From Actinomycetota bacterium (lineage in GTDB: Bacteria > Actinomycetota > Acidimicrobiia > Acidimicrobiales > Ilumatobacteraceae): a DNA stretch of 64,000 nucleotides. The position numbers and the translations under genes were made by a program. This document shows, one piece after another, positions 20,270 through 36,855 of this stretch (its first letter is position 1; each line of letters starts with the position of its first letter). The DNA is taken from NCBI GenBank assembly GCA_039800005.1, contig JBDLRN010000064.1:5540-69539 (forward strand), read 5' to 3'. Below the pieces are notes generated by a model that was not told the origin of the DNA, ran no database searches, and saw only the letters and a list, made by a program, of their open reading frames with translations.

Positions 20270-20353
20270 GTGAGGCCGGCGACCACTCTCACCGTTGCGC
20301 TGTTGCTGGCGGGGATCTTCATCGCCGGGATCGTGTCACTCCTGAGTCTGTGA
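20270..20353 (+). CDS. Possible leaderless 27-aa hydrophobic micro-protein
   Basis: GTG 20270, VRPATTLTVALLLAGIFIAGIVSLLSL, TGA 20351-53. The next gene starts 10 nt later. Confidence 0.25.
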   Translation: MRPATTLTVALLLAGIFIAGIVSLLSL

Positions 20354-20362
20354 CGTGGTGCC

Positions 20363-21865: not shown

Positions 21866-22564
21866 CGATGCCACCAGGAAACCGGCGAACAGGATCACCA
21901 CTCCGACCACCAGCGTGACCGCGAAGGCGCGATCCTCGCCCAGTCGACCGGCGAACGAACCACTCGCGGACAACACGAGGGTTCCGACCGCGATGAGCAC
22001 GTTGGCGACGGTGTGTCGACGAACGTCGGAGATCTGCCGCGTCGCACCGGACAGAGCGGGTATTCGCCCGCGAAGCGATCGAGCGACCGACCACAGGGCA
22101 CCCACGATGATCACGAGCGCCGCCACACCCGACCCCACGGCGGCGAACGCACGCGGTGCGGCGTCGAACAGTTCGCTGCCCTGAGGCATCGCACTTCCTT
22201 CGACGTCGACCCACTTCATCGGGGCGACGAGCGTGACGCCGACCGCGGCGCCCGAGAGCCCGACGAGCCAGGCGCGAACTCGATCGCCGAGAACACGACC
22301 GCCGAGCAGGTACACCGTGCCGAGGGCCAGCCACGGGACGTTGAGAATCGCCCCGGCGAGATAGAAGACGCGGAACGAGGATCGACTCCAGCCGCGGGCC
22401 TCGGCCCACCACAGTGCCGCCGAACCCAGAGCGAACAAGACGAGTGACACGGTCCAGGCCGCTTCGTGGGCACGACGACGACGCAACCAGCGATCGAAGG
22501 TCGACAGCGCGAACGCCGACGCCACGAGAGTTGCCGAGGCGGCCAGTGCGGCATCGAGAGTCAC
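21821..22564 (-). CDS. Integral membrane protein, unknown function
   Basis: 247-aa ORF with about 7 hydrophobic segments. GTG start at 22564. The 3' end overlaps the convergent fadD-like gene by 45 nt. Confidence 0.55.
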   Translation of the reverse strand: MTLDAALAASATLVASAFALSTFDRWLRRRRAHEAAWTVSLVLFALGSAALWWAEARGWSRSSFRVFYLAGAILNVPWLALGTVYLLGGRVLGDRVRAWLVGLSGAAVGVTLVAPMKWVDVEGSAMPQGSELFDAAPRAFAAVGSGVAALVIIVGALWSVARSLRGRIPALSGATRQISDVRRHTVANVLIAVGTLVLSASGSFAGRLGEDRAFAVTLVVGVVILFAGFLVASSQRATEQLAEVVVR

Positions 22565-22713
22565 GCTTCCACGTTAGAAGTGACCGAGGTGAAAAGTCCT
22601 GGTGTGGCCGGTCGCGATCGGTCGCGACCCGGCAGAGACGTTCGGCCCGGCCACGGTGACCGATGACCGGCCGGTGAATCGATCGTGACTTCGTGAATTT
22701 GCGAACGTCGCCC

Positions 22714-22719
22714 TAGCGT
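22714..22719 (+). promoter_or_regulatory. Candidate -10 box (TAGCGT) 9 nt upstream of the rex ATG
   Basis: CCTAGCGT-TTCGGAACG-ATG. Confidence 0.35.
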
Positions 22720-22728
22720 TTCGGAACG

Positions 22729-23412
22729 ATGGTCGATCGCCCCCGACGCCGCATTCCCGAAGCCACGGTCATCCGTCTGCCCCTGTACCTGCGCATCCTC
22801 AACGAGGTGGCCGACGAGGGGGTCGAGCACCTGTCGTCGGATCGTCTGGCCGAACTGGCCGGCGTCAACGCCGCCAAGGTCCGCAAGGACCTGAGCTACC
22901 TCGGCAGTTATGGCACGCGAGGCGTGGGGTACGAAGTGTCGTATCTCGTGTACCAGATACAGCGCGAACTCGGCCTCAACCACGAGTGGCCGATCGTGAT
23001 CATCGGTGCCGGCAACCTGGGTCAGGCCCTGTCCGGCTACGCCGGTTTCGGACAGCGCGGCTTCCCGGTGGCAGGCATCGTCGACGTCGACACCGAGAAG
23101 GTGGGTTCGGTGATCGGAGGAGTTCGGGTGCGTCACATCGACGACCTGCCGCAGATCGTCGCCGCCCGTCAGGTCTCGATCGGCGTCGTGGCGGTACCGC
23201 CGGTCGCCGCTCAGGACGCGGCCGATCGTCTCGTGCGGGCCGGTGTCACCAGCATTCTGAACTTCGCCCCGGTGGTCCTGTCGGTGCCGCGCGGTGTGAC
23301 CGTTCGCAAGGTCGACCTGGCTCTCGAACTGCAGATCCTCAGCTACTACGAACAGAAGCGAGCGTCGACCCTGCAGATCGTTCCGCGATCGGGCTCCGGC
23401 GCGTCGGCCTGA
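22729..23412 (+). CDS. rex: Redox-sensing transcriptional repressor Rex
   Basis: IPEATVIRLPLYLRIL winged-helix N-terminus. SYGTRGVGYEV. IIGAGNLGQAL Rossmann motif. NFAP. Confidence 0.9.
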   Translation: MVDRPRRRIPEATVIRLPLYLRILNEVADEGVEHLSSDRLAELAGVNAAKVRKDLSYLGSYGTRGVGYEVSYLVYQIQRELGLNHEWPIVIIGAGNLGQALSGYAGFGQRGFPVAGIVDVDTEKVGSVIGGVRVRHIDDLPQIVAARQVSIGVVAVPPVAAQDAADRLVRAGVTSILNFAPVVLSVPRGVTVRKVDLALELQILSYYEQKRASTLQIVPRSGSGASA

Positions 23413-23441
23413 CGCCGACCGCGCCGATCTACGCTCGACCC

Positions 23442-24038
23442 ATGCGACAGTTCGCCACGTGGCGATTCTGGGCGACCATCGCCACTCTCGTCGTCGTGAC
23501 ACTCGTGTTACGAGGCTGTCTCGGCTCCGAGGCCGATTCGACAGATGTCGACGTCGTCACGTCGCGACGTGTCGATCTGATCTCGCTCACCGCCACGATC
23601 CGATCCGATGCGCCGTGGTTCGTGTCCGGTGGTGCGATGGTCGGAGACGCCACCGTGGTCCTCGCGAACGGACGAGTGATCCGCCTGACCGACGGAACGA
23701 TCGGCGAGAGTTCGTGTCTCTATCCCGACGTCACGAACGCGTGCGTTCTGTTGGCCGACACTCTGGGCGACGGTGTCGTGTGGTTCGCGCTGCTGCCGGC
23801 TCCGCCGAGTGCGTCGAACGAACTCGAACTGCCACCCATCGTCGAATTACTCGAGGGAGTCACGTTCGCTCGACTCGACAACGGCTGGGAGATTCCGCTT
23901 CTCGACCGCGTCGTCCGGCGATGCGAGACCGAATCACCGAATCTGACGGCATTCGTGCAACGGTTCGCCGATCGACACGCCACCATCGTCGATCTCGATC
24001 GCGCCCAGGTGTCGGCCGTTCGCTGTCTCGAGAACTGA
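23442..24038 (+). CDS. Membrane-anchored or secreted Cys-containing protein, unknown function
   Basis: ATG 23442 within ORF 22986..24038. N-terminal hydrophobic helix WATIATLVVVTLVL then RGC. 198 aa. 30 nt after rex. Confidence 0.5.
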   Translation: MRQFATWRFWATIATLVVVTLVLRGCLGSEADSTDVDVVTSRRVDLISLTATIRSDAPWFVSGGAMVGDATVVLANGRVIRLTDGTIGESSCLYPDVTNACVLLADTLGDGVVWFALLPAPPSASNELELPPIVELLEGVTFARLDNGWEIPLLDRVVRRCETESPNLTAFVQRFADRHATIVDLDRAQVSAVRCLEN

Positions 24039-24060
24039 TCGCAGCGAGCGAGGTCGCGCC

Positions 24061-25326
24061 TCAGGCGTTGGGCGCCAGACGCACGATGGTCGCCGCGGCC
24101 TTGTAGGCGGCTTCGGCCGGACCGATCTCGTCGGGACGCAGCAGGTTGGCCATGATACGCAACACCCATTCCATGAGCGTGCGACTGTGCATGCCCACCC
24201 GACTCAACTCGCGCATGATGACCGGACGGCCGATGATGCGTGCGAACAGTCGAGCCACCTTGAAGTACTGGCCGTACTCGGCGTCGAGCAACTGCTGGTA
24301 CTGCTGCAACGCAGCCGGATCGTTCTCACTGATCGCTTGATACAGAACATCGGCGGCGATGCGCGCGGTCTCGTACGCATAGTCGATCCCTTCGCCGTTG
24401 AAGGGGTTCACACTTCCGGCGGCGTCGCCGACGACGAGATACGTGGGGCCCCACTTCGGTCCGACCGAACCGCCCATGGGGATACGACCCGACGTGGCCT
24501 TGTTGGTGGGATTGTCGGGATCGATCTCCCACTTGTCGGCCACCATGTGTGCGTACTCGTTGAGCAGGTGAGTCGTGTTGACGCTCTTGAAGTCGCGGAA
24601 CGTGGAGAGCAATCCGACACCGATGTTCACCGTGCCGTCGCCCACCGGGAAGATCCAGCCGTAACCGGGCAACGGGTTTCCGTTGCGATCCTTCACGTCG
24701 AGAGCCGATTCGATCCAGGGATCGGCGTGACGGGGCGTCTCCCAGTACGTGCGAATCGCCGTTCCGTAAGGCCATTCCTTGGTGCGGAAGGTTCCGAGCG
24801 CGCGACCGAAACGACTGTTGGCACCATCGGCCACGACCACGTAGTTGGCCGACACGTCGATCGACTTTCCGTCCTTGTTGGTGAGCGTCGCGCCACGCAC
24901 GAAACCTCGATCGAGAATCGGTGCTCCGGCTTCGTGACCTTCGAGAAGGGTTGCGCCGGCTCGCTCGGCGTTGCGCGCCACCATCGTGTCGAGTTCCCGA
25001 CGACGCACGACGTAGCCGTGCTGTGGGTAGATCGGATGGGTGGGCCACTGCAGTTCGAGTTCACGTCCGTGCGCCGTGGCCCGCAGACCTTCGTACCGAT
25101 GGAACTGCGACAACTCGTCGGCCAGGCCCATGTCGCCGAGCTGTTTCACCGCTCGCGGGGTCAGACCGTCACCACAGGTCTTCTCGCGCGGGAAGGTCTT
25201 CTTGTCGACCATGACCACGTCGAGGCCGTGGCGAGCCAACCAGTACCCGGCCGCTGAACCGGCCGGACCGGCCCCGATCACCAGGACGTCGTGATGAGAG
25301 CCGTCATGGACCGTTGAAGTCGACAT
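24061..25326 (-). CDS. Geranylgeranyl reductase family flavoprotein (MenJ-like menaquinone reductase candidate)
   Basis: DVLVIGAGPAGSAAG FAD motif, KTCGDGLTPRA, GDAAGSVNPFNGEGI. Confidence 0.8.
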   Translation of the reverse strand: MSTSTVHDGSHHDVLVIGAGPAGSAAGYWLARHGLDVVMVDKKTFPREKTCGDGLTPRAVKQLGDMGLADELSQFHRYEGLRATAHGRELELQWPTHPIYPQHGYVVRRRELDTMVARNAERAGATLLEGHEAGAPILDRGFVRGATLTNKDGKSIDVSANYVVVADGANSRFGRALGTFRTKEWPYGTAIRTYWETPRHADPWIESALDVKDRNGNPLPGYGWIFPVGDGTVNIGVGLLSTFRDFKSVNTTHLLNEYAHMVADKWEIDPDNPTNKATSGRIPMGGSVGPKWGPTYLVVGDAAGSVNPFNGEGIDYAYETARIAADVLYQAISENDPAALQQYQQLLDAEYGQYFKVARLFARIIGRPVIMRELSRVGMHSRTLMEWVLRIMANLLRPDEIGPAEAAYKAAATIVRLAPNA

Positions 25327-25423
25327 GGGCGTCAGTGTGTCGGCTGACGGACTCCACCGCCCAGGCGGGCGAGCTCTGATGGGGTGACGAGCGACTCAGG
25401 CGCAGGGCCCGGGCCGCTGCGGC

Positions 25424-26245
25424 TCACATGCCGTATTCGGTACCGGCGGTCGTGCCGAGGCGGGGCTCGGTGCCGACCCCGACTTCGGGGCTGTCGAAGG
25501 TCAAAGAACCATTCTCGAGACCGAGGAAGATCTCGCTCTCCTCGCTACACCACTTCTCGTACTCCTCGGCCCACTCGCCACCCTCATCGGCTCCGGAGAG
25601 GTCGTAGCGGATGTGGCAGACCACGCCCAGGATCTCGTACTCGGTCAGGGCCCCACCGTACGTGGCTCCCTGGGCCGGCATGGGGCTGCCGTTGTAGGAC
25701 CGGGGGGCGTGGGCACCACCCTCACGATCCGGGTCGCCGTAGGTGGCGACGCCCGCCGCTTCCCAGGCTTCCGTCCCTGCGTAGACCCACAAAAGCATGT
25801 CCTCGATGTGCGGGAAGGTCTTCAACGATTCGCCACCGCTCAGCACGCGACCGGCTCCGCCACCGCCGTCCCCACCGTGGCAGGACGCGCAGGTGCCGTA
25901 GTTCTCGATGCCGATGGCAATCGGGCCGCTGGCCTCGGCTTTTTGGGGCTGGAGACCCCGGACGTACATGAACAAGAAGATGGGCAGCAGGGCCAGGGTC
26001 AACATGGCCCAGGAGGGGATGCGAGTCCGCGTCTTGGCGGCGGTGACGTAGGCCGGGTCCGGCGTGACCGGCGGGGTGACCGGGGCCGGAGCCTCGGCTC
26101 GCGGGGCCGGGCTGGCCGACGTGGTGGCCGGGACGGGGGCCGAGGCTCCCTCGGCCGACCCCGACGATGCCGAGCTGTCGCTCGACGCTCCGCCAGCACG
26201 GCGGTCGCGAGAGCGCTTCAGAAGGTGTTCGGGAATCTCGGTCAC
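25424..26245 (-). CDS. Membrane-anchored mono-haem cytochrome c
   Basis: One CASCH haem motif. Single TM helix (WAMLTLALLPIFLFMYV). The N-terminal MTEIPEHLLKRS is shared with the subunit-IV-like gene at 28401. Confidence 0.75.
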   Translation of the reverse strand: MTEIPEHLLKRSRDRRAGGASSDSSASSGSAEGASAPVPATTSASPAPRAEAPAPVTPPVTPDPAYVTAAKTRTRIPSWAMLTLALLPIFLFMYVRGLQPQKAEASGPIAIGIENYGTCASCHGGDGGGGAGRVLSGGESLKTFPHIEDMLLWVYAGTEAWEAAGVATYGDPDREGGAHAPRSYNGSPMPAQGATYGGALTEYEILGVVCHIRYDLSGADEGGEWAEEYEKWCSEESEIFLGLENGSLTFDSPEVGVGTEPRLGTTAGTEYGM

Positions 26246-26307
26246 TGACCAGTCCTTTCGGGGGACCCGATGGGGGCACGAACGACTGCACAGAATAGAG
26301 CCCCGGC

Positions 26308-26332
26308 GGTCCGGAACGGGAATTCCCGGACC
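26308..26332. promoter_or_regulatory. Palindrome in the divergent cytochrome c / bc-cluster intergenic region
   Basis: Perfect 12-bp CGGGAATTCCCG (26317-28), nested in GGTCCGG...CCGGACC arms. Confidence 0.35.
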
Positions 26333-26669
26333 GACGTCACGGTACCCCTGTCGGGTCGTCGCAGTGAGTGATCGAACACGAGTTCACAACCACCCCTGTC
26401 GAGCGGTCGAACCTGATAGACCACACCGTTGGAACCTCTCTCGGTCGGTACGTCGCCGGGTCGGTTCTCGCACCCTCCGCCCTCCCGGTGGCCCCGCCAA
26501 GGTCGCCGAACGTGACCGACGTCGTCGGTTCCGGTCGTGGCGAGTTGGGTGGTCGAGAACCCCTGCCGACTAAGGTCGCGAAAGTATCCACACGGTGGTG
26601 CATCGTCCTGTGCGACGGTTCGCCTTCGACAAACGACCAGTTCACGCGGCCCGACGGGGCACAGAAGGG

Positions 26670-27158
26670 ATGACCGGCACGATGCTGGCGATCGACATTC
26701 TGAAATGGCCGGGGATGAATCAGGCTTTCCTCTTCACCTTTGCGCTCACGCTCGTGCTCACCGGCCTCGTCTTCGTGTACGGCAAGCGCCGTCCGCTCGG
26801 CACCCCGGTCTCGTGGGGTGAGGCGATGATCGGCTCGGTCTACGCGTTCTTCGTGATGTTCCTGGCCTACGGCGTGGTGCCGCACCAGTGGCTGGTTCAC
26901 GTCCAGAACGAACTCGGCTGGCAGTCCGACAAGATGCTCTACGGCCCTGGCGACATCTTCAAGTCACAGGCGAAGGGTGGAAGCTTTCCCTTCGACATCA
27001 ACTACCTGCAGGTCGGCGACATCCTCGTGACCGGCATCTACGGACTCTTCCTCGGTCTGCAGATCTACATCTGGGTGTGGTGGCAGAAGCGGGGCAAGTC
27101 GGCCTCCACCGAACTCGAGAAGTCCACGTACGGCCGCCCGTTGGTGAAGAAGGTCTGA
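26670..27158 (+). CDS. Integral membrane protein, unknown function, first gene of the bc-type cluster
   Basis: ORF 26595..27158. ATG 26670 or 26682 preferred (MTGTMLAIDILKW...). Four hydrophobic segments. The stop is 1 nt before the ferredoxin ATG. Confidence 0.6.
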   Translation: MTGTMLAIDILKWPGMNQAFLFTFALTLVLTGLVFVYGKRRPLGTPVSWGEAMIGSVYAFFVMFLAYGVVPHQWLVHVQNELGWQSDKMLYGPGDIFKSQAKGGSFPFDINYLQVGDILVTGIYGLFLGLQIYIWVWWQKRGKSASTELEKSTYGRPLVKKV

Positions 27159-27159
27159 C

Positions 27160-27573
27160 ATGGCTCGCACCGACGCCAATCCGCCGATGATGCCGTACAC
27201 CGACCAGTACCAACTGGTCGAGGTCGATGCCGATTACCTGACCAAGGCCGTCAAGCCCAAGCAGTTCATCCACATCGATCAGTCCGAATGCATCATGTGC
27301 GAGGGTTGCGTCGACATCTGCCCCTGGAAGTGCATCCACATGGTGCAGCCCGAGGCGATCGTCGAAGCCACCGGCACCGAGAGGCCGGGTCTCGACCCCA
27401 ACGACAACGTGATCTTCATCATCGACGACGACGTGTGCACGCGTTGTGCACTGTGCGTCGATCGCTGCCCCACTGGTGTGATCATCCTCGGCAAGGCCGG
27501 CGCGGCCCTCGCCACGGGTGACACCCACATGCGCACCAACAACCACGGTTACGCCTACGGAATGCGTTTCTAG
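27160..27573 (+). CDS. 2x[4Fe-4S] dicluster ferredoxin-domain protein
   Basis: CIMCEGCVDICP and CTRCALCVDRCP motifs. Confidence 0.85.
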   Translation: MARTDANPPMMPYTDQYQLVEVDADYLTKAVKPKQFIHIDQSECIMCEGCVDICPWKCIHMVQPEAIVEATGTERPGLDPNDNVIFIIDDDVCTRCALCVDRCPTGVIILGKAGAALATGDTHMRTNNHGYAYGMRF

Positions 27574-27586
27574 GAGACGACGAACT

Positions 27587-28369
27587 ATGGCCAAGGTCAT
27601 CGACAACCCCCGCCCCACCGCCAAGGAGCGTCTGAACAAGACGATCGAATCGGTTCAGGGCAGCCAAGCCTGGAACTCGATCTTCCGACCCGGATCGATC
27701 TTCCGCAAGGGCTACACCGACAGCCCACGTAATCGTTCGTACGTGGTGATGAACTCGGTGCTCTACCACTTGCACCCCGTGAAGGTGAAGCGTCACGCCG
27801 TCAAGGTGAGCTACACGCTCTGCCTCGGTGGACTCAGCTTCTTCCTCTTCATCCTGCTCACCGTCACCGGCATCTTCTTGATGTTCTTCTACCGCCCCGA
27901 AGCCACGGCGGCCTGGAACGACATCAAGAGTCTGCAGACGTCGGTGGCTTTCGGATTGCTGGTGCGCAACATGCATCGCTGGGGAGCCCACCTGATGGTG
28001 CTCTCGGTGTTCTTGCACATGGCGCGCGTCTTCTACCACGGTGCGTACAAGCCGCCGCGAGAGTTCAACTGGGTGATCGGCGTCGTGCTGCTCACTCTCA
28101 CGTTGTTGCTGTCGTTCACCGGCTATCTGCTGCCGTGGGACCAGTTGGCCATGTGGGCCGTCGCCGTGGGTACCAACATGATGGGGTACACACCGGTGTT
28201 CGGTTCGCAAGTTCGTTTCGTGCTGCTCGGCGGTGTCGAGATCGGCTCCGAAACTCTGTTGCGTTGGTACGTGTTGCATGTGCTGATGCTTCCCTTCGTG
28301 ATCGTCATCTTCATGGCGATCCACTTCTGGCGAGTTCGTAAGGACGGAGGCATCTCGGGTCCGCTGTGA
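27587..28369 (+). CDS. qcrB: Cytochrome b6-type (four-helix, split) cytochrome b
   Basis: ATG 27587 after AGGAG. Helix-B His pair NMH...FLH (i, i+14). Helix-D His pair HVLMLPFVIVIFMAIH with 14 residues between. YTLCLGG Cys at 27821-23. The protein ends after helix D. Confidence 0.85.
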   Translation: MAKVIDNPRPTAKERLNKTIESVQGSQAWNSIFRPGSIFRKGYTDSPRNRSYVVMNSVLYHLHPVKVKRHAVKVSYTLCLGGLSFFLFILLTVTGIFLMFFYRPEATAAWNDIKSLQTSVAFGLLVRNMHRWGAHLMVLSVFLHMARVFYHGAYKPPREFNWVIGVVLLTLTLLLSFTGYLLPWDQLAMWAVAVGTNMMGYTPVFGSQVRFVLLGGVEIGSETLLRWYVLHVLMLPFVIVIFMAIHFWRVRKDGGISGPL

Positions 28370-28400
28370 TCCGAGAGCCGAAAGGACGCACGAGAGAACC

Positions 28401-29159
28401 ATGACCGAGATCCCCGAACACCTGCTGAAGCGAGCCCAGGCGGCTCGCGAGAAGGCGGCATCCGAGCAAGGAGATGCGGCGAGCGGCTCCGGCGACGCGC
28501 CGGCTTCCGATCCGCGCATCCCCGCGCATTTGCTCGAGCGCAGTCGCGCCGCCAAGGCCAAGACCGAGGGCGACGGCGGTGCCGTGGCCGTCGCCGAGAA
28601 GGTCGCCGCCCTCGTGACTGCTGCGCCGTCTGCCGGCGGCGTGCCCGTGGGCGCCGGACCCGGCGGCCACACGCAGCGTCTGCTCACCGTCGTGAAGTCG
28701 GGTTCGATCCAGGACGTGAAGGCCACGCCGGTCGACAAGGTGCACACCTGGCCGCATCTGCTCGCCGTCGAATTCGTGGCGGCGTTGGCCTGTACGGCGT
28801 TCCTGTTCTTCTTCTCGATCTTCGTGAACGCACCTCTGCTCCAGTTGGCCAACCCCAACCAGACGCCCAACCCGTCGAAGGCCCCGTGGTACTTCCTCGG
28901 TCTGCAGGAATTGCTCACCATGTTCCATCCGATGGTGGCCGGTGTGACCATTCCGGGTATCGCTCTCTTCGCCTTGATCCTGGCGCCGTACATCGACAAG
29001 AACCCGTCCAACAAGCCGGAGGACCGCAAGTTCGCCACGTCATTGATGACGGTCCACCTCATGTTCTGGGCGGTGCTGGTGATGATCGGTTCCTTCTTCC
29101 GGGGCCCCGGATTCAACTTCGTGTTCCCCTGGCGCGACGGCCTCTTCTTCGAGTTGTGA
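28401..29159 (+). CDS. Cytochrome b6f subunit IV-like protein (C-terminal half of cytochrome b) with long N-terminal extension
   Basis: KAPWYFLGLQELL (PEWY-region variant). Three C-terminal TM helices. ~110-aa N-terminal extension with two IP(E/A)HLL(K/E)R repeats. Confidence 0.8.
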   Translation: MTEIPEHLLKRAQAAREKAASEQGDAASGSGDAPASDPRIPAHLLERSRAAKAKTEGDGGAVAVAEKVAALVTAAPSAGGVPVGAGPGGHTQRLLTVVKSGSIQDVKATPVDKVHTWPHLLAVEFVAALACTAFLFFFSIFVNAPLLQLANPNQTPNPSKAPWYFLGLQELLTMFHPMVAGVTIPGIALFALILAPYIDKNPSNKPEDRKFATSLMTVHLMFWAVLVMIGSFFRGPGFNFVFPWRDGLFFEL

Positions 29160-29169
29160 GGTAGATCCC

Positions 29170-30033
29170 ATGAGCTCAGCAGCAACCATCGCCATCGTCA
29201 TCGTCGCCATCGTCGTGTTGGCCGGCGTCGTGTTCGTCACGACCGCTCGTCGTTCCGACGTGCGCGGTGCCGGGGCTCTGTCACGAGAAACCGTGAAGCG
29301 CGACAAGGCCGCCTACCGCTCCGAAGACAAGGTGTCGGTCGCGTCCGGTGCCTCGTTCGAATCGGCCGAAGTGGCCACTCGCTCGCAGGCGCTCGAAAAG
29401 GCCCCCGAGGTCGCTCCGGTCGCCTGGGTCGCTCCCGACGAGGAAGCGGTCGGCGTCTCGCGTCGTCAATTCTTCAACCGCGCTGCGGTCACCATGATGA
29501 GCGCCAGTATCGGTGCTTTCGGAGTGGCGGTCGTGGCGTTCCTCTGGCCGCGTGCCGGCGGAGGTTTCGGTTCCAAGGTGAACGTCGGTCGTCTCGACGA
29601 CCTGCTCGTGCAGATCCGCAACGAAAAGGGCTTCGTCTACAAGCCCGAAGCCCGCACCTGGCTCACCGCCTATCCGGCCGGTGCACTTCCCAAGGCTCGG
29701 GCGGCCTACGCCGCTCAGCCGTCGGTGCTCGCCGGAATGGAAGCGGGCATCTCGGCGCTGTACCAGAAGTGCCCGCACCTCGGATGCCGTGTGCCCGAGT
29801 GCAAGAGCTCGCAGTGGTTCGAATGCCCGTGTCACGGTTCGCAGTACGACCGTTCGGGTGAGAAGAAGGCCGGTCCGGCCCCGCGCGGTATGGATCGTTT
29901 CGGCGTGTCGATCAGCAACGGAAACGTCATCGTCGACACCGGCACGGTGTTCAACGGCGCTCCGATCGGTACCAACACGACCGGTCAGGAAGCGGAAGGT
30001 CCGCACTGCATCACCGGCGGAGGAGGCCACTGA
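29170..30033 (+). CDS. qcrA: Rieske [2Fe-2S] iron-sulfur protein
   Basis: CPHLGCRV and CPCHGSQY boxes. SRRQFFNRAAV Tat-like motif. Extra N-terminal TM helix. Confidence 0.9.
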   Translation: MSSAATIAIVIVAIVVLAGVVFVTTARRSDVRGAGALSRETVKRDKAAYRSEDKVSVASGASFESAEVATRSQALEKAPEVAPVAWVAPDEEAVGVSRRQFFNRAAVTMMSASIGAFGVAVVAFLWPRAGGGFGSKVNVGRLDDLLVQIRNEKGFVYKPEARTWLTAYPAGALPKARAAYAAQPSVLAGMEAGISALYQKCPHLGCRVPECKSSQWFECPCHGSQYDRSGEKKAGPAPRGMDRFGVSISNGNVIVDTGTVFNGAPIGTNTTGQEAEGPHCITGGGGH

Positions 30034-30035
30034 TC

Positions 30036-31100
30036 ATGTTCGCCCTCGCCACGACCACCATCGCGATCCTCATCGCCGTCACGGTCACTCTCGCCTGGGG
30101 CGTCTACGCCTTTTTCAACTGGGCGTCGGGTCGGGCCGAGATCGGTTCCGAGATCGAGCTGGCCGCCAACCGCAAGCCGTATTACGACGACGAAGTCCTC
30201 GAAGGCAAGCGCCTCGAGCGTGTGCAGTTCCTCGGTGTCTTGTTGCTCGCCACCATCACCATCGGTCTGCCGGTGTATTGGCTCTACGAGCCGGAGCGTC
30301 AGGCCAACGCGACCGAAGGGTTCGAGAATCGATTCGCCAGTTGGGGATCGCAGTTGTTCGACGTGACGGCCAACGGTGGCTTCAACTGCGCCGGTTGCCA
30401 CGGTGGCATGAACGCCACGGGTGGTGCGGCCGAGTACACCGTGACCGACTCCAAGACCGGCCAGGTCAAGGCGGTGTCCTGGAAGGCACCGGCGCTCAAC
30501 ACCGTGTTCTACCGCTTCAGTGAAGACGAGGTGCGATTCATTCTCGAGTACGGCCGCCCGTTCTCGCCCATGTCTCCTTGGGGTGTTCGTGGCGGTGGCC
30601 CGATGAACGATCAGCAGATCAACAACTTGATCTACTACTTGAAGAGCATTCAGGTGCCGCGTGAGAACTGCATCGTGGCCGATGCCGATCCGCTCAATTG
30701 TGACGGCGGACATCTGCCCGCTTCCGTGCAGGACGACATTCAGGCCGCCGCCGAGCGATCAGTGGACGACGGCACCTACAGCAGCATCGGTGAAGCACTG
30801 TTCAATCTCGAGCTCGGTTCCGGCGCGTACAGTTGCGCGCGGTGTCACACGCCGGGTTGGAGCTGGGGCGAACCTGGCGAAACAGGAGCCGGCGCCTTTG
30901 GTTGGAACCTCACTGGTGGAGCGACCAACTCGCACTTCGCCACCGAGCAGGAGATGATCGACTTCATCAAGGCCGGTTCGGTGTACGGCGCCAAGTACGG
31001 TGTCCAGGGCCAGGGCAGCGGCCGCATGCCGGGATTCGGCAGCACCCTCACCGATGACCAGATCCGCGAGATCGTGAACTACGTACGGAGCGAGCTGTGA
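30036..31100 (+). CDS. qcrC: Membrane-bound dihaem cytochrome c (QcrC-like)
   Basis: CAGCH and CARCH haem motifs. Two N-terminal TM helices. Confidence 0.85.
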   Translation: MFALATTTIAILIAVTVTLAWGVYAFFNWASGRAEIGSEIELAANRKPYYDDEVLEGKRLERVQFLGVLLLATITIGLPVYWLYEPERQANATEGFENRFASWGSQLFDVTANGGFNCAGCHGGMNATGGAAEYTVTDSKTGQVKAVSWKAPALNTVFYRFSEDEVRFILEYGRPFSPMSPWGVRGGGPMNDQQINNLIYYLKSIQVPRENCIVADADPLNCDGGHLPASVQDDIQAAAERSVDDGTYSSIGEALFNLELGSGAYSCARCHTPGWSWGEPGETGAGAFGWNLTGGATNSHFATEQEMIDFIKAGSVYGAKYGVQGQGSGRMPGFGSTLTDDQIREIVNYVRSEL

Positions 31101-31918
31101 GTGCGATCTTGAGCATCGGCTGGGAGCCCGAAATTCGTGGCCTTCTCACCGTCATCATCGGTGCGGTGGCTTTGGGGGGCAGCGTCTATCTGCTTCTCGC
31201 CACCAACATGGGAATTCGGCTCGGTTTCCTCGTCGCCTTCGCCGGGCTGTTCGGCTGGATGGCGACCATGGGCGCGATCTGGTGGGCATACGGCATCGGT
31301 CTCACCGGCCGTATGCCGACGTGGGAGCCGGCCCAGCCCTTCACCATCGTGCGTGAGGGACCGCGACTGCTCGACGCGGAGGTTCTCGACACGCCCGTGA
31401 TCGTGGACGGTGGTGAGTCGTACACCGAAATCGCTTCGGCGACCGAGGAGGCGCTCGTCACCGACGGCTGGACCAAGTTGCCCGACGACGATCAGGGCCG
31501 AGGGCAGGCGGTGGCCGCCGCCGACGAGATCATCCAGGTCGAGGCCGAATTGTTCGCAGCCGGGGAATATCAGGCCGTGGCGGTGTACACCCGTGGCGGA
31601 GAGCGTTGGCCCAAGATCGGCGACAACATCGACTTCCTCGCTTTCTTCCACGACCCGCATTACGCCGTCGTCGAGATCGCCCCGGTCGTCCCTCAGCGCG
31701 TCGAGCCTGGTCGCGCTCCGGCCCGTCCGGTGATCGACGAGGCACAGCCTCATCAGTACGTGGTGATGCTCCGCGATCTCGGCACCAAGCGTCAGCCGGC
31801 TGCGTTCATCACCATCGGTTCGACGATCATCTTCCTGGTGAGCTGCTGGGTGCTCCACCGCCGAGATCGGGTGTTGGCCCGCCACCTCTCGGGTGCTGTC
31901 GTCCCGGCCCGGAGCTGA
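31097..31918 (+). CDS. Integral membrane protein, unknown function, linking the bc-type and nuo genes
   Basis: GTG 31097 overlaps the qcrC stop (GTGA). Three N-terminal TM helices and one C-terminal. Ends 3 nt before nuoA. Confidence 0.6.
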   Translation: MSAILSIGWEPEIRGLLTVIIGAVALGGSVYLLLATNMGIRLGFLVAFAGLFGWMATMGAIWWAYGIGLTGRMPTWEPAQPFTIVREGPRLLDAEVLDTPVIVDGGESYTEIASATEEALVTDGWTKLPDDDQGRGQAVAAADEIIQVEAELFAAGEYQAVAVYTRGGERWPKIGDNIDFLAFFHDPHYAVVEIAPVVPQRVEPGRAPARPVIDEAQPHQYVVMLRDLGTKRQPAAFITIGSTIIFLVSCWVLHRRDRVLARHLSGAVVPARS

Positions 31919-31921
31919 GCC

Positions 31922-32386
31922 ATGGGACAGTACCTTCCGGTCATCGCGCTCATGATCCTGGGGGTTCTGTTCGGCGTACTCAGTTTCGTGGCGTCGCGAT
32001 TGCTCGCGCCTCGTCGCCCGTCGGTGGCCAAGGAAGCTCCCTACGAGTGTGGCATCGTGCCGAGCCGAGAGAACCCGGAACGTTTCCCGGTGAGCTTCTA
32101 CATAGTGGCGATGTTGTTCATCATGTTCGACATCGAGATCGTGTTCATCTATCCCTACGCCGTGAGCCGTGGTGAACTCGGAGCCTTCGCCTTCTGGGAG
32201 ATGGTCGCCTTCAGCGCAGTCTTCTTCGCCGCTTTCGTGTACGTGATCGCCCGCGGTGCGCTCGATTGGGGTCCGGTGGCCAAGGCGCGCCGCCTGGTGG
32301 ACGGTGTGACGTCCGAACGGACGTCCACTTCGACGATTCGTCGCGTCGGTCTGGAAGGACGCGTCGACGCCGACCAGGCGGCCTGA
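31922..32386 (+). CDS. nuoA: NADH-quinone oxidoreductase subunit A
   Basis: YECGI...FDIEIVFIYPYA motifs. Position in the operon. Confidence 0.88.
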   Translation: MGQYLPVIALMILGVLFGVLSFVASRLLAPRRPSVAKEAPYECGIVPSRENPERFPVSFYIVAMLFIMFDIEIVFIYPYAVSRGELGAFAFWEMVAFSAVFFAAFVYVIARGALDWGPVAKARRLVDGVTSERTSTSTIRRVGLEGRVDADQAA

Positions 32387-32401
32387 CGGCGGAGGTTTGA
32401 C

Positions 32402-33001
32402 ATGAGTCTTGTTCGCAACGTCCTCGACGACGGTCTCGGTGGGATCCAGCACAACTTCCTCACCGGCAAGATCGAGGACCTCGTCAAGTGGTCGCGCAGT
32501 CGCTCGAGTTGGGGTGCGACCTTCGGTCTGGCCTGCTGTGCCATCGAGATGATGGGCACCGGTGGCGCGCACTACGACATCGCGCGTTTCGGAATGGAAG
32601 TGTTCCGCGCCTCTCCGCGTCAGGCCGACATTCTCATCGTCGCCGGCCGCGTGAGTCAGAAGATGGCGCCCGTTCTTCGCCAGGTGTACGACCAGATGAT
32701 GGAACCGAAGTGGGTCATCTCGATGGGCGTGTGCGCATCGAGCGGCGGCATGTTCAACAACTACGCCATCGTGCAGGGCGTCGACCAGGTCGTGCCGGTC
32801 GACGTGTACGCCCCTGGATGCCCCCCGACTCCCGAGACCCTCATCCACGCCATCGAGACCCTTCATCAGAAGATCGAGGACGGCGAGATCATGCGTCGTC
32901 GTCGTGAGACGGGTGCGGGTGCCGAGATCCACATCACCGAGATCGCGCCCGAGCAGGTGCCGGTGTCGCTCGGTTCGTCGTTGCGGAGCGTGACGGCATG
33001 A
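32402..33001 (+). CDS. nuoB: NADH-quinone oxidoreductase subunit B
   Basis: [19 protein letters not shown] and GCPPTPE, the N2 cluster ligands. Confidence 0.92.
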
Positions 33002-33510
33002 GCGACACTCCGGCCTCAGCCGCCGACGACGAGTCATTGCCCGAATCTCTTCACGGTTGCCCAGTCACGTATTCACGTGACCAGAAGGTCGTTCATCCGT
33101 CGCGTGATCAGTACGTCGTGCTGCTGAAGAAGTTGATCGACGAAGGTTTCACCATGTGCGCCGATCTCACGGCGGCCGACTACCTCACGCATCCCGGGCG
33201 CGCTCTCCCGGCCGGTGTGAACGCCGAGCGGTTCGAGGTCGTGCTCAATCTGTTGTCGATCACCAAGCGTGAGCGACTGCGTGTTCGCGTGCAGGTACCC
33301 GAGTCCGATCCCACCATCGCATCGTGCTTCGACTTGTGGCCGGGCACCGAGGCCATGGAGCGCGAAGTGTTCGACATGTTCGGTGTGCGTTTCGACGGCC
33401 ACCCCGATCTCACCCGCATCCTCATGCCCGAGGACTGGGAGGGGCACCCCTTGCGCAAGGACTACGCCATCGGCCGGATCCCGGTCCAGTTCAAGGGAGC
33501 CCACTCGTGA
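32998..33510 (+). CDS. nuoC: NADH-quinone oxidoreductase subunit C
   Basis: [43 protein letters not shown]. Confidence 0.9.
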
Positions 33511-34838
33511 CCGCCGTCGAAAACGTCCGTCTCACGAGCGAAGGCGCGCAGGAGATGAAGCCCCGAAGCGAACTCGGGGCCAAGGAACTGATGCGCGAAG
33601 TCGGTGCGGTGCTCCGTATGAGCGAAGCCGAAGCGGCTCGCCTCGGTGAGTTGCCCGCCGACGACGAAGACCAGACGATGATCATCAACATGGGTCCGCA
33701 GCACCCCAGCACCCACGGTGTGTTGCGCCTCATGCTCGAATTGCAGGGCGAGACGGTTCTGCGCTGCAAGCCGATCATCGGCTACCTGCACACCGGCATG
33801 GAGAAGACCGGTGAGGAACTCACCTTCCTCCAGGGTGGCACCAACGTCACGCGCATGGACTACCTCAGTCCGCTGAACAACGAATTGGTGTTCTCGATGG
33901 CCACCGAGAAGTTGCTCGGCATCGACGGCGACATTCCCGAGCGTGCGGTCTGGATGCGCATGCTGCTCTCGGAGATGAACCGCATGAGCAGTCACCTTCT
34001 CTTCCTCGCCACCAACGGCATGGACCTCGGCGCGGTGTCGATGATGCTCTACGGCTGGCGCGAACGCGAAGAGGTGTTGCGGTTCTTCCAGAAGGTCACC
34101 GGACTGCGGATGAACCACAACTTCATCCGACCCGGTGGGCTCGCCGCCGACTTGCCGCCGGGTTGGCGCGACGACGTGCTGTCGATTCTCGAGATGCTGC
34201 CGTCGCGCCTCGAGGAATACGACGTCCTCATGACCAACCAGCCCATCTGGCGCGAACGCCTGCAAGGTGTGGGTGTCATCACGGCCGAGGAAGCTCTCGC
34301 CCTCGGAACCACCGGCCCGATCCTCCGCTCGACCGGGGTGCCATTCGACCTTCGTCGTGACATGCCGTACATGCACTACGACGAACTCGACTTCGACGTG
34401 ATCGTCGGATCGTACGGTGACGCTTTCGATCGCTATGCGATTCGTCTCAACGAGGTGCGCGAGTCGATCAAGATCGTCCACCAGATCCTCGACCGTATGC
34501 CGTCGGGTGACTATCGCATCCAGAACAAGAAGGTCACACCGCCGCCGCGAGCCCGCATCGACGAGTCGATGGAGGCACTCATCCACCACTTCAAGATCTT
34601 CACCGAGGGCTTCAAAGTGCCCGAAGGCGAGGTGTACGTGGGAATCGAGAGCCCGCGCGGCGAGATCGGTTGCTACATCGTGAGCGACGGAGGCCCCAAG
34701 CCCTATCGCATCCACATGCGTGCCCCGAGTTTCGTCAACATCCAAGCACTGCCGCACATGATGCGCGGTGGTCTGGTCGCCGATGCGGTCGCCGTGATCT
34801 CGTCGGTCGACCCCGTTCTCGGAGACGTCGATCGCTGA
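33507..34838 (+). CDS. nuoD: NADH-quinone oxidoreductase subunit D
   Basis: GTG 33507 overlaps the nuoC stop. NMGPQHPSTHGVLRL. C-terminal DPVLGDVDR. Confidence 0.92.
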   Translation: MTAVENVRLTSEGAQEMKPRSELGAKELMREVGAVLRMSEAEAARLGELPADDEDQTMIINMGPQHPSTHGVLRLMLELQGETVLRCKPIIGYLHTGMEKTGEELTFLQGGTNVTRMDYLSPLNNELVFSMATEKLLGIDGDIPERAVWMRMLLSEMNRMSSHLLFLATNGMDLGAVSMMLYGWREREEVLRFFQKVTGLRMNHNFIRPGGLAADLPPGWRDDVLSILEMLPSRLEEYDVLMTNQPIWRERLQGVGVITAEEALALGTTGPILRSTGVPFDLRRDMPYMHYDELDFDVIVGSYGDAFDRYAIRLNEVRESIKIVHQILDRMPSGDYRIQNKKVTPPPRARIDESMEALIHHFKIFTEGFKVPEGEVYVGIESPRGEIGCYIVSDGGPKPYRIHMRAPSFVNIQALPHMMRGGLVADAVAVISSVDPVLGDVDR

Positions 34839-35452
34839 TGGCCCGCCTCACTGAAGACAACGTCCGCCTGGCGCGCGAGATCATCGCGCGTTACCCGCGC
34901 TCGCGCTCGGCCACCATTCCGTTGCTGCATCTCGCGCAGCAGCAGGACGGGTACGTGACCAACGAGGCCATGGCTCACATCGGCGAACTGGTCGGAGCCA
35001 CGTCCGCCGAGGTGTACGGCACCGCCTCGTTCTACGAGATGTTCAAGTTCGAACCGGTCGGCAAGTACCTCATCAACATCTGCGGCACCATGTCGTGCGC
35101 GCTGATGGGTGCCGAGGAACTCATCCATCACGCCGAGGATCGCTTGGGCGTGAAATTGGGTGGCACCACGGCCGACGGCAACTTCACTCTCGAGCGTGCC
35201 GAGTGCCAGGCGGCCTGCACCGAGGCCCCGTGCCTCCAGGTCAACTATCGCTATCGGTATCGCGTCACGCCCGCCGAGTTCGACGGCCTCGTCGACGATC
35301 TGGCGGCGGGGCGACTCGACGCCGAGATCCCGGCTCATGGCACCGTGGCCCGTGTGCGTCAGCGCGTCACACCCGACCGAATGGTCGGAGCGGTTCCTCC
35401 GGAGGACGTGACCGAAGCACCGGTCTGGATGGACGGGAAGGCGGCACTGTGA
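34838..35452 (+). CDS. nuoE: NADH-quinone oxidoreductase subunit E
   Basis: ATG 34838 (TGATG overlap). CGTMSCALMG...CQAAC 2Fe-2S motifs. Confidence 0.9.
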   Translation: MARLTEDNVRLAREIIARYPRSRSATIPLLHLAQQQDGYVTNEAMAHIGELVGATSAEVYGTASFYEMFKFEPVGKYLINICGTMSCALMGAEELIHHAEDRLGVKLGGTTADGNFTLERAECQAACTEAPCLQVNYRYRYRVTPAEFDGLVDDLAAGRLDAEIPAHGTVARVRQRVTPDRMVGAVPPEDVTEAPVWMDGKAAL

Positions 35453-36855
35453 GCGCGCAGGGCAGTTACGCACACGCACCGGGATTCTTCGTCGGTGATC
35501 GGCCACGGATCGTCACCTCGCGGTTCGAATACGAGGACTCGCACACCCTCGAGCGTTACCTCGCCACCGATGGCTATCAGGGATTGCGACGAGCCTTGGC
35601 GCGCCCGGCTTCCGAGATCCACGACGATGTCAAAGGCGCGACCGTTCTCGGACGCGGAGGCGCGGGATTCCCGGCCGGCACCAAGTGGGGCCTCACTCCG
35701 CAGGGCGTGTTTCCGCGTTACCTCGTCGTCAACGGTGACGAGAGCGAGCCGGGCACCTACAAGGACCGTCTGCTCATGGAGCGCGATCCTCATCAGCTCA
35801 TCGAGGGTTGTCTGATCGCGTGTTACGCCGCGGGTCTGTCGCAGTGCTTCCTCTACATCCGTGGCGAGATGGCGCTGGCCCAAGAGCGCGTGGCCGCGGC
35901 TCTGAACGAGGCCTACGCCGCCGGTTACGTGGGCAAGAACGTGCTCGGCAGTCGCTTCTCGATCGACATCACTCTTCACTGGGGAGCCGGTGCCTACGTG
36001 GTCGGCGAAGAGACCGCTCTCATCGAGAGTCTCGAAGGCAACCGGGGTATGCCGCGTTTGAAGCCGCCGTACTTCCCGGCCGCCATCGGTCTCTACGGGC
36101 AGCCCACGATCGTCAACAACGTCGAGACTCTGGCCAACCTGCCCTGGATCGCGCGCAACGGTGTGGCGGCGTACACCGCCATCGGGACCGCCACGTCGCC
36201 GGGCACTCGCATGGTCGCGGTGTCCGGACACGTGAATCGTCCCGGTGTGTACGAGATCGTCAACGGCACCACGACCTTCCGCGATCTGATCTACGGCGAC
36301 GAGTTCTGCGGCGGCATCCGCAACGGCAACGAACTGAAGGCTTTCGTCCCCGGTGGTGGATCGGCTCCGTGGTTCACACCCGAACAACTCGACCTCCCGT
36401 TCGAAGCCAGCCAGATCGGACCAGCCGGGTCGATGCTCGGTTCGGGCGCCATCATGGTGATGGACCACACCACCGACATTCCGCGCGCCGCGCTCACCCT
36501 CACGCGTTTCTACGCCCACGAGTCGTGCGGCAAGTGCACCCCGTGCCGTGAAGGCGGCACGTGGCTCGAGCGCATCCTGTCGCGCATCGTCGACGGCAAG
36601 GGCACCGATGCCGACATCGAGCAACTGTTCGAAGTCGGCGAGTCGATCTGTCCCGGCGCCTTCCCGCACGCGTCGAGTTCCAAGCTCGGGCTGTCGGCCA
36701 CTCCGTTCCCGTATCGCATGAACACGATCTGCTTCGTCGGACCGTCGGCATACGCGCCGATCCACTCGGCACTCACTCTCTTCCGTGAGGAATTCGAGTC
36801 ACGGGTGACCAAACGCCATCGCATCCCTGTCACCGCATCCGGAGCGTCATCGTGA
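35449..36855 (+). CDS. nuoF: NADH-quinone oxidoreductase subunit F
   Basis: GTG 35449 overlaps the nuoE stop. GRGGAGFPAGTKW FMN/NADH motif. ESCGKCTPCREG N3 cluster. Confidence 0.92.
   Translation: MSAQGSYAHAPGFFVGDRPRIVTSRFEYEDSHTLERYLATDGYQGLRRALARPASEIHDDVKGATVLGRGGAGFPAGTKWGLTPQGVFPRYLVVNGDESEPGTYKDRLLMERDPHQLIEGCLIACYAAGLSQCFLYIRGEMALAQERVAAALNEAYAAGYVGKNVLGSRFSIDITLHWGAGAYVVGEETALIESLEGNRGMPRLKPPYFPAAIGLYGQPTIVNNVETLANLPWIARNGVAAYTAIGTATSPGTRMVAVSGHVNRPGVYEIVNGTTTFRDLIYGDEFCGGIRNGNELKAFVPGGGSAPWFTPEQLDLPFEASQIGPAGSMLGSGAIMVMDHTTDIPRAALTLTRFYAHESCGKCTPCREGGTWLERILSRIVDGKGTDADIEQLFEVGESICPGAFPHASSSKLGLSATPFPYRMNTICFVGPSAYAPIHSALTLFREEFESRVTKRHRIPVTASGASS

Follow-up and report, generated by a model that had tools for sequence, protein, structure and literature searches.

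A seven-gene Rieske/cytochrome b cassette with a dicluster ferredoxin gene in Acidimicrobiia-type Actinomycetota

Genes and subunits of the cassette

A 64,000-nt stretch of an Ilumatobacteraceae (Acidimicrobiia) genome, referred to as the window (all coordinates are window positions), carries seven consecutive genes of a Rieske/cytochrome b complex: a membrane protein (TM1), a 2x[4Fe-4S] ferredoxin, a four-helix b6-type cytochrome b, a subunit IV (SUIV) homologue, a Rieske [2Fe-2S] protein, a membrane-anchored dihaem cytochrome c and a second membrane protein (TM2). Together they form one conserved cassette (Table 1). The original prediction had listed the first six genes in this order with gaps of 1–31 nt, and the open reading frame (ORF) call and Pfam agreed with it (TM1 being unmatched); from TM1 to the dihaem c gene the intergenic gaps were 1, 13, 31, 10 and 2 nt. 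The TM2 gene overlaps the dihaem c gene by 4 nt, and the cassette is thus one gene longer than had been proposed; nuoA starts 3 nt past TM2. The stop codon of TM1 lies 1 nt ahead of the ferredoxin start in the window, and the two genes overlap by 4 nt in a distant relative (L082). The Pfam E-values were down to 7e-11 for the Fer4 families, 1e-46 for Cytochrome_B, 1.5e-8 for Cytochrom_B_C and 8.5e-11 for Rieske; the dihaem c protein matched Cytochrome_CBB3/Cytochrom_C in two stretches. Relatives were collected by a scan of one genome per species, which found 589, and the best 80 of these (85–99% cytochrome b identity), from Ilumatobacteraceae and other Acidimicrobiia metagenome-assembled genomes (MAGs), were analysed as close loci. 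Distant loci were obtained in a second search with a profile of distant ferredoxins, from which five contigs (L081, L082, L083, L085 and L086) were examined.

The cytochrome b ends after helix D, and the gene downstream of it is a Cytochrom_B_C match with three hydrophobic helices. Two histidine pairs ligate its haems, His130/His144 at i/i+14 and His231/His246 with 14 residues in between, and Cys79 of the motif YTLCLGG is its sole cysteine. In a phmmer search of the PDB, residues 74–260 aligned to solved b6 chains with one gap near the C-terminus (6rqf, E=2.5e-48). The alignment set Cys79 on b6 Cys35 (6rqf, 1vf5, 1q90), that is, at the haem ci position, and the four histidines on the b6 ligands without gaps, in line with the histidine spacings and the haem ci cysteine that had been read from the sequence before. 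Cys79 and the four haem histidines are invariant in all of the 83 related loci. The C-terminus, RKDGGISGPL, retains the b6 end ...RK(D/Q)GISGPL in the PDB alignment. The highest-scoring NCBIfam model was ExtP, from the Geobacter Rieske/cytochrome b cluster (NF040969; 308.6 bits, cut-off 290), and lower scores were obtained with the models for Bacillus-type b6 (213.5 bits, cut-off 325), actinobacterial QcrB (118.8 bits, cut-off 500) and SoxC (99.7 bits, cut-off 740). The PDB scores were ∼165–168 bits for b6 chains, ∼115 for bc1 cytochromes b and ∼87 for actinobacterial QcrB. With both sets of scores above those of QcrB, the earlier assignment to the b6 type held: judged by these alignments, the cytochrome b is b6-type, not QcrB-type, and has its only cysteine at the haem ci position.

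Related cytochromes b are publicly annotated as 'ExtP selenite/tellurite reduction operon' or as 'quinol-cytochrome oxidoreductase'; PGAP gives the ExtP name to actinobacterial members (P0033, P0075, P0527), as the equivalog cut-off is passed. For the actinobacterial proteins this name is probably a misleading over-annotation, since none of the other genes of the Geobacter ext operon (ExtH–S: porin, rhodanese, multihaem cytochromes) was found in the window or in related loci, and the NCBIfam ExtQ score of SUIV was just 50 bits against a cut-off of 150. The ExtP model covers just residues 54–257, and the b6 alignment begins at residue 74. The N-terminus is 44 residues longer than that of b6 and is clade-specific; it contains WNSIFRPGSIFRKGY and HLHPVKVKRH, and the corresponding motifs WxS(I/M)FRPGS(I/L)F(R/Q)KGY and HLHPxKxKRH are kept across all close and distant cassettes. 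The histidine triad of HLHPVKVKRH (residues 61–70), on the cytoplasmic (n) side just ahead of helix A, is invariant in 83/83 loci. In AlphaFold3 models of the anammox complexes an extra b haem is predicted at the n-side dimer centre (PMC12954380), and by analogy these histidines could be ligands of a comparable extra haem.

SUIV has three transmembrane (TM) helices by hydropathy. Its Qo region reads SKAPWYFLGLQELL, with the motif KAPWY/APWY, so that both a cytochrome b ending after helix D and an APWY motif on the next gene were found as predicted. The window has KAPWY, as do 78 of 79 loci, and the distant cassettes also carry APWY. At the n-side end of the first helix lies WPHLLAVEF, the WPH....EF pattern sitting where b6f has WPNDLLYMF. 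In menaquinone-type complexes a Glu ligates the low-potential haem cN, and a Glu and a His lie near haem cN in the anammox complexes (PMC12954380); the Glu of the SUIV motif is at or adjoining the position of the liganding Glu. The N-terminal cytoplasmic extension is ∼85 residues longer than that of Chlamydomonas subunit IV and contains two IPxHLLxR copies. The N-terminus (M/V)TEIPEHLLKR(A/S) is common to SUIV (28401–28440, +) and the divergently transcribed cytochrome c upstream of the cassette (26213–26245, −). With a second SUIV copy, RIPAHLLERS at 28518–28541, there are three occurrences in the window in total and none elsewhere in it. Two or three copies were seen in 75 of the 86 loci scanned, i.e. 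in most close loci; the distant cassettes are without this peptide and have other basic Ala-rich N-terminal helices. The HLLKR-type peptide could be a cytoplasmic docking peptide.

The Rieske protein has an extra N-terminal TM helix, followed by SRRQFFNR and the anchor helix. CPHLGC and CPCHGSQY form its cluster boxes, and the second of them (box II) retains the Ser and Tyr typical of high-potential Rieske proteins, C(P/Q/G)CHGS(Q/K/T)Y, as in b6f; the residue after its first Cys varies among close relatives (CPCHGS, CQCHGS, CGCHGS), with Ser and Tyr unchanged. The best PDB relatives were the anammox Rieske domains 9rk4/9rk3, followed by b6f PetC. The b6f PetC models of NCBIfam gave 63–64 bits (63.9), and QcrA gave 21.6 bits against a cut-off of 275. 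By these matches the Rieske protein is b6f-like rather than QcrA-like. The dihaem cytochrome c has two N-terminal hydrophobic helices, and both predicted haem motifs were present (CAGCH at 118–122, CARCH at 267–271). No match to QcrC was obtained in NCBIfam, and phmmer gave no match in the PDB. A 16-sequence profile of the protein matched QcrC chains at E-values between 1e-3 and 4e-3; no individual stretch was significant, and the similarity was confined to the N-terminal helix and the first haem motif, within the N-terminal part of QcrC. The second domain resembles SoxX/c6 (profile, 2e-5). In the distant relative L081 the c subunit has a single haem motif.

The original prediction had described the complex as a hybrid with an actinobacterial dihaem c. 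A recent hybrid of a b6f-like cytochrome b with actinobacterial QcrA/QcrC partners would suit the actinobacterial host, the presence of a dihaem c subunit and its weak profile similarity to the N-terminal part of QcrC. The b6-type cytochrome b, the PetC-like Rieske protein and a c subunit that reaches no QcrC model argue that the complex is not a b6/QcrAC hybrid. Moreover, the complete cassette is conserved over deep divergence (see below), and the lineage probably falls within the multi-phylum APWY clade described earlier (PMC4122944). A hybrid origin is thus considered highly improbable. Instead, the complex appears to be a coherent member of a known split, CxGG-bearing, APWY-type lineage, and homology of its c subunit to QcrC is not demonstrable at the profile E-values of ∼1e-3.

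Three TM helices are predicted in TM1, which ends in a basic tail (STYGRPLVKKV); it gave no match in Pfam, NCBIfam or the PDB profile search. Its positional homologues in close and distant cassettes conserve W49, P71, W84, D117, Q139 and Y154. In TM2 a variable outer domain lies between TM helices at the N-terminus and one TM helix at the C-terminus; the protein matched no known family, and the PDB profile search was empty. The distant homologues of TM1 and TM2 are weak yet alignable.

The cluster ligands of the ferredoxin are C44/47/50/54 and C93/96/99/103, in the motifs CIMCEGCVDICP and CTRCALCVDRCP that had been noted before. A 38-residue insert separates the two motifs, and the N-terminus carries the family-specific motif DYxLxxVDxxYL. 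The hydropathy profile showed no TM helix and inspection of the sequence no signal peptide; the ferredoxin should therefore be cytoplasmic. Pfam found only Fer4 domains in its 137 aa, and no flavoprotein gene in the cassette; the public annotation is '4Fe-4S dicluster domain-containing protein'. All eight cluster cysteines and the surrounding residues are invariant among 44 members of the family. A phmmer search against 1.84 billion cluster representatives, in which many matches were fragments, showed that the family is narrow, with 591 matches at E<1e-3, 153 at E<1e-10 and 38 at E<1e-30. Full-length ferredoxins down to 35% identity share DYxLxxVDxxWL, CIxCxxCxDxCPWxCI and FVIDDxxCTRCxxCVxRCP.

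The best PDB matches of the ferredoxin family profile were FwdF/MvhB polyferredoxin modules, the inserted ferredoxin domain of HdrA, NuoI/NdhI and NfnABC (9bov/9bp5), all of which are electron wires within larger enzymes. After three repetitive polyferredoxins, the best single-domain matches outside the family were the C-terminal dicluster domains of 595–615-aa GltD/DPD-like NAD(P) oxidoreductases (Fer4_20 + Pyr_redox_2 + Fer4), which have the long insert between the cluster motifs in common with the ferredoxin. Short cytochromes b of subfamily G are found together with large Fe-S proteins that bind NAD(P) (PMC5600118). The structures that the anammox subunits Kuste4570 and Kustd1483 resemble, NfnABC (9bp5) and FwdF (5t5i) (PMC12954380), belong to two families that the ferredoxin profile matches as well.

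In one relative (L084, 1600–2733) the ferredoxin and the cytochrome b form an in-frame fusion of 377 aa, which arose from a 76-nt deletion relative to the window and lies within an otherwise normal cassette on a 4.9-kb metagenome contig. Such a fusion makes sense topologically, the N-terminus of b6 being on the n side. It is the sole clean database fusion (P0031/L084). Six further candidates, P0016, P0023 and P0059 (Fer4+cytochrome b) and P0262, P0341 and P0352 (TM1+ferredoxin), were rejected as frameshift artefacts with out-of-frame Arg/Pro-rich text.

Table 1. Coordinates of the cassette genes and of neighbouring features in the window.
Feature	Position	Strand	Product or extent	Basis of assignment
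TM1	26670-27158	+	162 aa, first cassette gene	ORF call; family match none
2x[4Fe-4S] ferredoxin	27160-27573	+	137 aa	Pfam Fer4 families
Four-helix b6-type cytochrome b	27587-28369	+	260 aa	Pfam Cytochrome_B, NCBIfam, PDB alignment
Subunit IV (SUIV) homologue	28401-29159	+	252 aa	Pfam Cytochrom_B_C, alignment to 1q90_D, hydropathy
Rieske [2Fe-2S] protein	29170-30033	+	287 aa	Pfam Rieske, NCBIfam, PDB relatives
Membrane-anchored dihaem cytochrome c	30036-31100	+	354 aa	Pfam Cytochrome_CBB3/Cytochrom_C
TM2	31097-31918	+	273 aa, last cassette gene	family match none
Divergent membrane-anchored monohaem cytochrome c (CASCH)	25424-26245	-		ORF call; tblastn, close loci
14-subunit-type nuo (complex I) operon	31922-47030	+	nuoA-N, begins 3 nt past TM2	
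Redox-sensing repressor Rex	22729-23412	+		NCBIfam Rex, 333 bits
MenJ-like FAD-dependent menaquinone/geranylgeranyl reductase	24061-25326	-		MenJ model, 344 bits, below cut-off 700
Second complex I-like cluster	51690-62370	+	11-subunit; nuoA, B, C, D, H, J, K, L, M, N identified	

Conservation and genomic neighbourhood

The gene order of the relatives was determined by tblastn of the window proteins and was divergent cytochrome c (−), TM1, ferredoxin, b6, SUIV, Rieske, c, TM2 and nuoA throughout the close loci. Ferredoxin and TM1 were both present in 73 of the 75 loci that have at least 1.1 kb upstream of the cytochrome b, and TM2 was found in 64 close loci. The two loci without ferredoxin and TM1 are lone cytochrome b copies in unrelated surroundings (L063 inspected). 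These b6-type genes (L063, 8001–8786; L071, 8001–8792) are 85–87% identical, with ferredoxin, SUIV and Rieske genes not nearby; around the L063 gene, which is on a long MAG contig, lie sigma-factor and PadR-like genes. They could be solo paralogues or misassemblies. The median identities to the window over 72 loci (68 for the ferredoxin) were 90% for the cytochrome b, 82% for the ferredoxin, 76% for SUIV, 63% for the c subunit, 62% for the Rieske protein, 55% for TM1 and 51% for TM2. The ferredoxin is the second most conserved cassette protein and, by this measure, more strongly constrained than either the Rieske or the c subunit.

The same cassette surrounds all five distant ferredoxins: a small membrane protein (115–161 aa), the ferredoxin, b6 (256–268 aa), SUIV, the Rieske protein, a cytochrome c and a membrane protein, the genes past Rieske being called only as fragments in L086. 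A positional homologue of TM2 is present in L081–L083 and L085. The identities to the window in L081–L083 were 67–72% for b6, 55–63% for SUIV, 40–47% for the Rieske protein, 37–47% for the ferredoxin and 28–29% for the c subunit. The neighbours of the distant loci include caa3-type oxidase genes, CtaA/CtaB, haem synthesis genes, ResB/CcsA or Ccm, and Rex, which flanks the cassette in L081, L083 and L085. In all cassettes the ferredoxin lies between TM1 and the cytochrome b. The synteny of the ferredoxin and TM genes, a matter raised by the original prediction, was found to be strict in close and distant loci alike, and these comparisons indicate that TM1, ferredoxin and TM2 are fixed operon members over deep divergence. 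The carriers include freshwater acIV/Ilumatobacteraceae, Tara marine Acidimicrobiales and a Microthrixaceae MAG.

The pattern of conservation bears on the possibility that the ferredoxin, along with TM1 and/or TM2, serves as an assembly factor and not as a subunit, for instance for covalent haem attachment to Cys79 on the cytoplasmic side. In chloroplasts, n-side haem attachment is carried out by the CCB system. No CCB-type Pfam domain was among the Pfam results of the cassette, so that haem ci, if present, would depend on a different n-side route of maturation; this, and the fact that TM1 and TM2 match no known subunit family, would suit an assembly role. We nevertheless hold such a role to be improbable: an assembly factor would not usually surpass catalytic subunits in conservation, as the ferredoxin does with Rieske and c; the place of its gene between two membrane subunit genes at 1–13 nt spacing suggests equal stoichiometry; and it is fused in frame to the cytochrome b in L084.

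The divergent cytochrome c gene lies beside the cassette in close (Ilumatobacteraceae-level) loci and in 0/5 distant loci. The 424-nt intergenic region between it and TM1 (26246–26669) contained no Rfam match, sigma-70-like promoter or Rex operator (≤3 mismatches). Downstream, nuoA directly follows TM2 in 62 loci, and from this arrangement the nuo operon is probably co-transcribed with the cassette; a promoter/terminator scan gave no terminator-like sites above chance. A search for the Rex operator (TTGTGAAN4TTCACAA, ≤3 mismatches) yielded 0 matches, and Rfam gave no match on window positions 20000–34000. No canonical qcrCAB is present within the 64-kb window. Elsewhere in the window are an Mrp/NUBPL-type Fe-S cluster carrier ATPase (972–2354, −) and two adjacent glutamine synthetase-family genes (8824–10239, −; 10256–11278, −), the second of which is short, with partial domains.

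Two neighbours could provide partners for a ferredoxin that is a free soluble carrier, merely co-transcribed with the complex. One is the MenJ-like reductase, whose gene adjoins the cassette here and is retained beside it in 52 of the 80 close loci. The other is the second nuo cluster, which lies ∼20 kb away from the cassette and has no nuoE/F/G between nuoD and nuoH. Archaeal enzymes of the MenJ-like family have a ferredoxin donor, and NuoEFG-less enzymes in other phyla are thought to accept ferredoxin-type donors. A protein without TM helix would also be suited to such a function. In distant relatives, however, MenJ and the second nuo cluster are not beside the cassette, whereas the ferredoxin always is. 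In addition, the family is narrow, each member with checked context sits in the cassette, and L084 provides a natural fusion to the cytochrome b. A free carrier therefore has only a small chance of being the right description.

Possible role of the ferredoxin in the complex

Here the cassette abuts nuoA–N, and distant relatives have it next to genes for caa3 oxidase and for haem/cytochrome c maturation. The seven genes (26670–31918) therefore appear to specify the native complex III, a menaquinol:cytochrome c oxidoreductase, of Acidimicrobiia-type Actinomycetota. Ilumatobacter uses menaquinone. For the ferredoxin we favour, at chances slightly better than even, a role as a bound n-side subunit that would wire haem bH/ci to a cytoplasmic redox partner. 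The ferredoxin would be a stoichiometric peripheral subunit on the cytoplasmic face, held by the basic C-terminal tail of TM1 and the N-terminal extensions of cytochrome b and SUIV, with TM1 and TM2 as clade-specific membrane subunits. Its two clusters would form a short wire from the haem bH/haem ci (Qi) region to the cytoplasmic partner, and the protein would correspond, in minimal form, to the NAD(P) oxidoreductase module found in the anammox Rieske/cytochrome b complexes. An n-side location of both the ferredoxin and the cytochrome b N-terminus fits with the natural fusion in L084, which joins the two. Specialisations on the n side are found in all cassettes: the cytochrome b extension, the HLHPxKxKRH histidines, WPH....EF of SUIV and the RKDGGISGPL C-terminus.

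That the clusters exchange electrons with haem ci/bH, which would give a quinol-oxidising enzyme a third, cytoplasmic redox port, is a more tentative and on balance doubtful step. Electrons could leave by this port, the low-potential electron of bifurcated quinol oxidation passing to a low-potential acceptor, or they could enter, with ferredoxin-type reduction of haem ci and menaquinone. If true, the former would be a bifurcating enzyme (menaquinol to cytochrome c plus a low-potential acceptor) that makes ferredoxin-level reductant in aerobes, and the latter a hard-wired ferredoxin:menaquinone reductase at haem ci. To our knowledge, the ferredoxin-quinone reductase activity long postulated for b6f in cyclic electron flow has never been isolated. 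A high-potential Rieske protein acting on menaquinol may leave room for a very low-potential b branch, if the argument made for the anammox complexes (PMC12954380) applies.

Several points weigh against a bound, electron-transferring ferredoxin. Every characterised quinol-oxidising complex that we know of works without an n-side Fe-S protein, and the binding of the ferredoxin to the complex, the electron transfer and its direction are what we infer from the sequences. The ferredoxin is only modestly similar to the anammox-type module (80 residues, E ∼1e-12), and the in-frame fusion to cytochrome b rests on one metagenome contig. The AlphaFold2 models were poor, with a pLDDT of 56 for the ferredoxin (44-sequence alignment) and 53 for the cytochrome b (36 sequences). 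Finally, Leu78 aligns with b6 Tyr34, and the residue directly ahead of Cys79 is thus Leu. The Tyr at this place is kept in all experimentally confirmed haem ci binders (PMC4122944), and covalent haem on Cys79 is for that reason unproven.

In principle, the complex could be an ordinary complex III that performs the normal Q cycle only, with the ferredoxin bound off-pathway and its clusters structural or regulatory (O2, NO or redox sensing), in the manner of the supernumerary subunits of other bc complexes. The core indeed holds every element of a standard Q cycle, the cassette sits among aerobic respiratory genes and Rex, and extra subunits are described as common in Rieske/cytochrome b complexes (ten Brink 2013, as cited in PMC4683180). 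Yet the eight cluster ligands and their surroundings are invariant over deep divergence, the closest relatives of the ferredoxin are electron-wire modules, and a purely structural protein would not need two intact clusters. An off-pathway subunit is thus rather unlikely, and a ferredoxin wired to the b haems remains the description that we prefer.

The purpose of haem ci, and whether ferredoxin feeds or drains the Qi side of b6-type complexes, is a long-standing question, which a non-photosynthetic complex with its own ferredoxin subunit in culturable organisms would make directly testable. Culturable carriers are Aquihabitans sp. G128 and Ilumatobacter strain YM16-304 (PMC4122944). The carriers are among the most abundant lake actinobacteria and are also present in oceans, soils and wastewater; genome surveys book the enzyme as a generic 'menaquinol-cytochrome c reductase' (PMC12008989).

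Comparison with known Rieske/cytochrome b complexes

The original prediction had not recognised the complex as a described type. This applies to the ferredoxin/TM1/TM2 module and not to the cytochrome b, whose lineage has been described (PMC4122944): the lineage is already known in silico, and it is the seven-gene, ferredoxin-bearing form that we regard as new. In a literature search, no paper was found on an actinobacterial ferredoxin/TM1/TM2 module or on the seven-gene cassette.

With actinobacterial QcrCAB (Mycobacterium, Corynebacterium) the cassette shares the phylum, the menaquinol substrate and a dihaem c in place of c1. In contrast to the present cytochrome b, QcrB is long and unsplit and has a 13-residue helix-D spacing; QcrCAB has no ferredoxin, and its models gave low scores here. 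The Firmicute b6c complexes (Bacillus QcrABC; heliobacterial) are likewise non-photosynthetic, menaquinol-oxidising and of b6 type, and the Bacillus-type b6 model was matched below its cut-off. In Bacillus, subunit IV is fused to cytochrome c. Unlike the cassette, the Firmicute complexes lack ferredoxin, TM1 and TM2. Many members of the Firmicute clade have a class-I cytochrome c domain fused to the C-terminal cytochrome b part, and their Qo motif is mostly PDWY, with PEWY in heliobacteria (PMC4122944); the haem ci of the Firmicute complex has been shown biochemically, as cited in the same paper.

The cytochrome b6f complex (PetB/PetD/PetC) resembles the cassette in the near-ungapped b6 alignment over 187 residues, the His spacing, the Cys35 position, the C-terminal ISGPL, the three-helix subunit IV and the Rieske box CPCHGSQY. 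It differs in that the cassette has no cytochrome f and no PetG/L/M/N, reads APWY for PEWY and Leu for Tyr before the Cys, has long N-terminal extensions on b6, SUIV and the Rieske protein, occurs in a menaquinone host, and contains a dedicated ferredoxin, TM1 and TM2.

Kao & Hunte 2014 defined the APWY clade, a multi-phylum group (with delta-proteobacterial, Chloroflexi, Nitrospirae and Planctomycete members) that has a split cytochrome b and a CxGG motif, and of which no member was characterised (PMC4122944); it is probably Dibrova's subfamily G. Ilumatobacter coccineum YM16-304 was named in that study as having a split cytochrome b, which is listed among the pairs assigned to the PEWY-cyt c or APWY clade, and the APWY motif found here points to the APWY clade over the PEWY-cyt c clade. 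The clade includes Geobacter ExtO-P-Q (Cbc6), which has in common with the cassette the split four-helix cytochrome b with the CxGG Cys and the APWY SUIV, and whose ExtP model was passed. The Geobacter Ext cluster differs from the cassette in that it lacks a ferredoxin and includes a porin and 4- to 12-haem cytochromes c (PMC5877670). Here the motif reads LCLGG, whereas that of the clade is usually WCMGG. Compared with the clade and ExtP, the cytochrome b here also has an N-terminal extension of ∼50 residues, and its setting is aerobic respiration.

The anammox complexes Kuste4569-4574 and Kustd1480-1485 of Kuenenia stuttgartiensis likewise combine a b6-like cytochrome b with a SUIV-like protein, and their Rieske protein gave the best PDB match. 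They also have a cytoplasmic-side Fe-S protein in the Rieske/cytochrome b operon, for which a path from haem bN/cN to [4Fe-4S] has been proposed (PMC12954380), and the Glu and His near haem cN there have a parallel in the conserved WPH....EF here. On the n side, the anammox complexes have a large four-cluster FAD/NAD(P) oxidoreductase, whereas the cassette has a 137-aa dicluster ferredoxin and TM1 with no FAD/NAD(P) domain. The c subunits are hexa- or octahaem in anammox and a dihaem class-I protein here, SUIV has five helices there and three here, and the setting is the anaerobic anammoxosome there and an aerobic respiratory chain here. Overall, the cassette links the NAD(P)-reductase-bearing complexes of anammox bacteria to a much simpler and far more widespread form.

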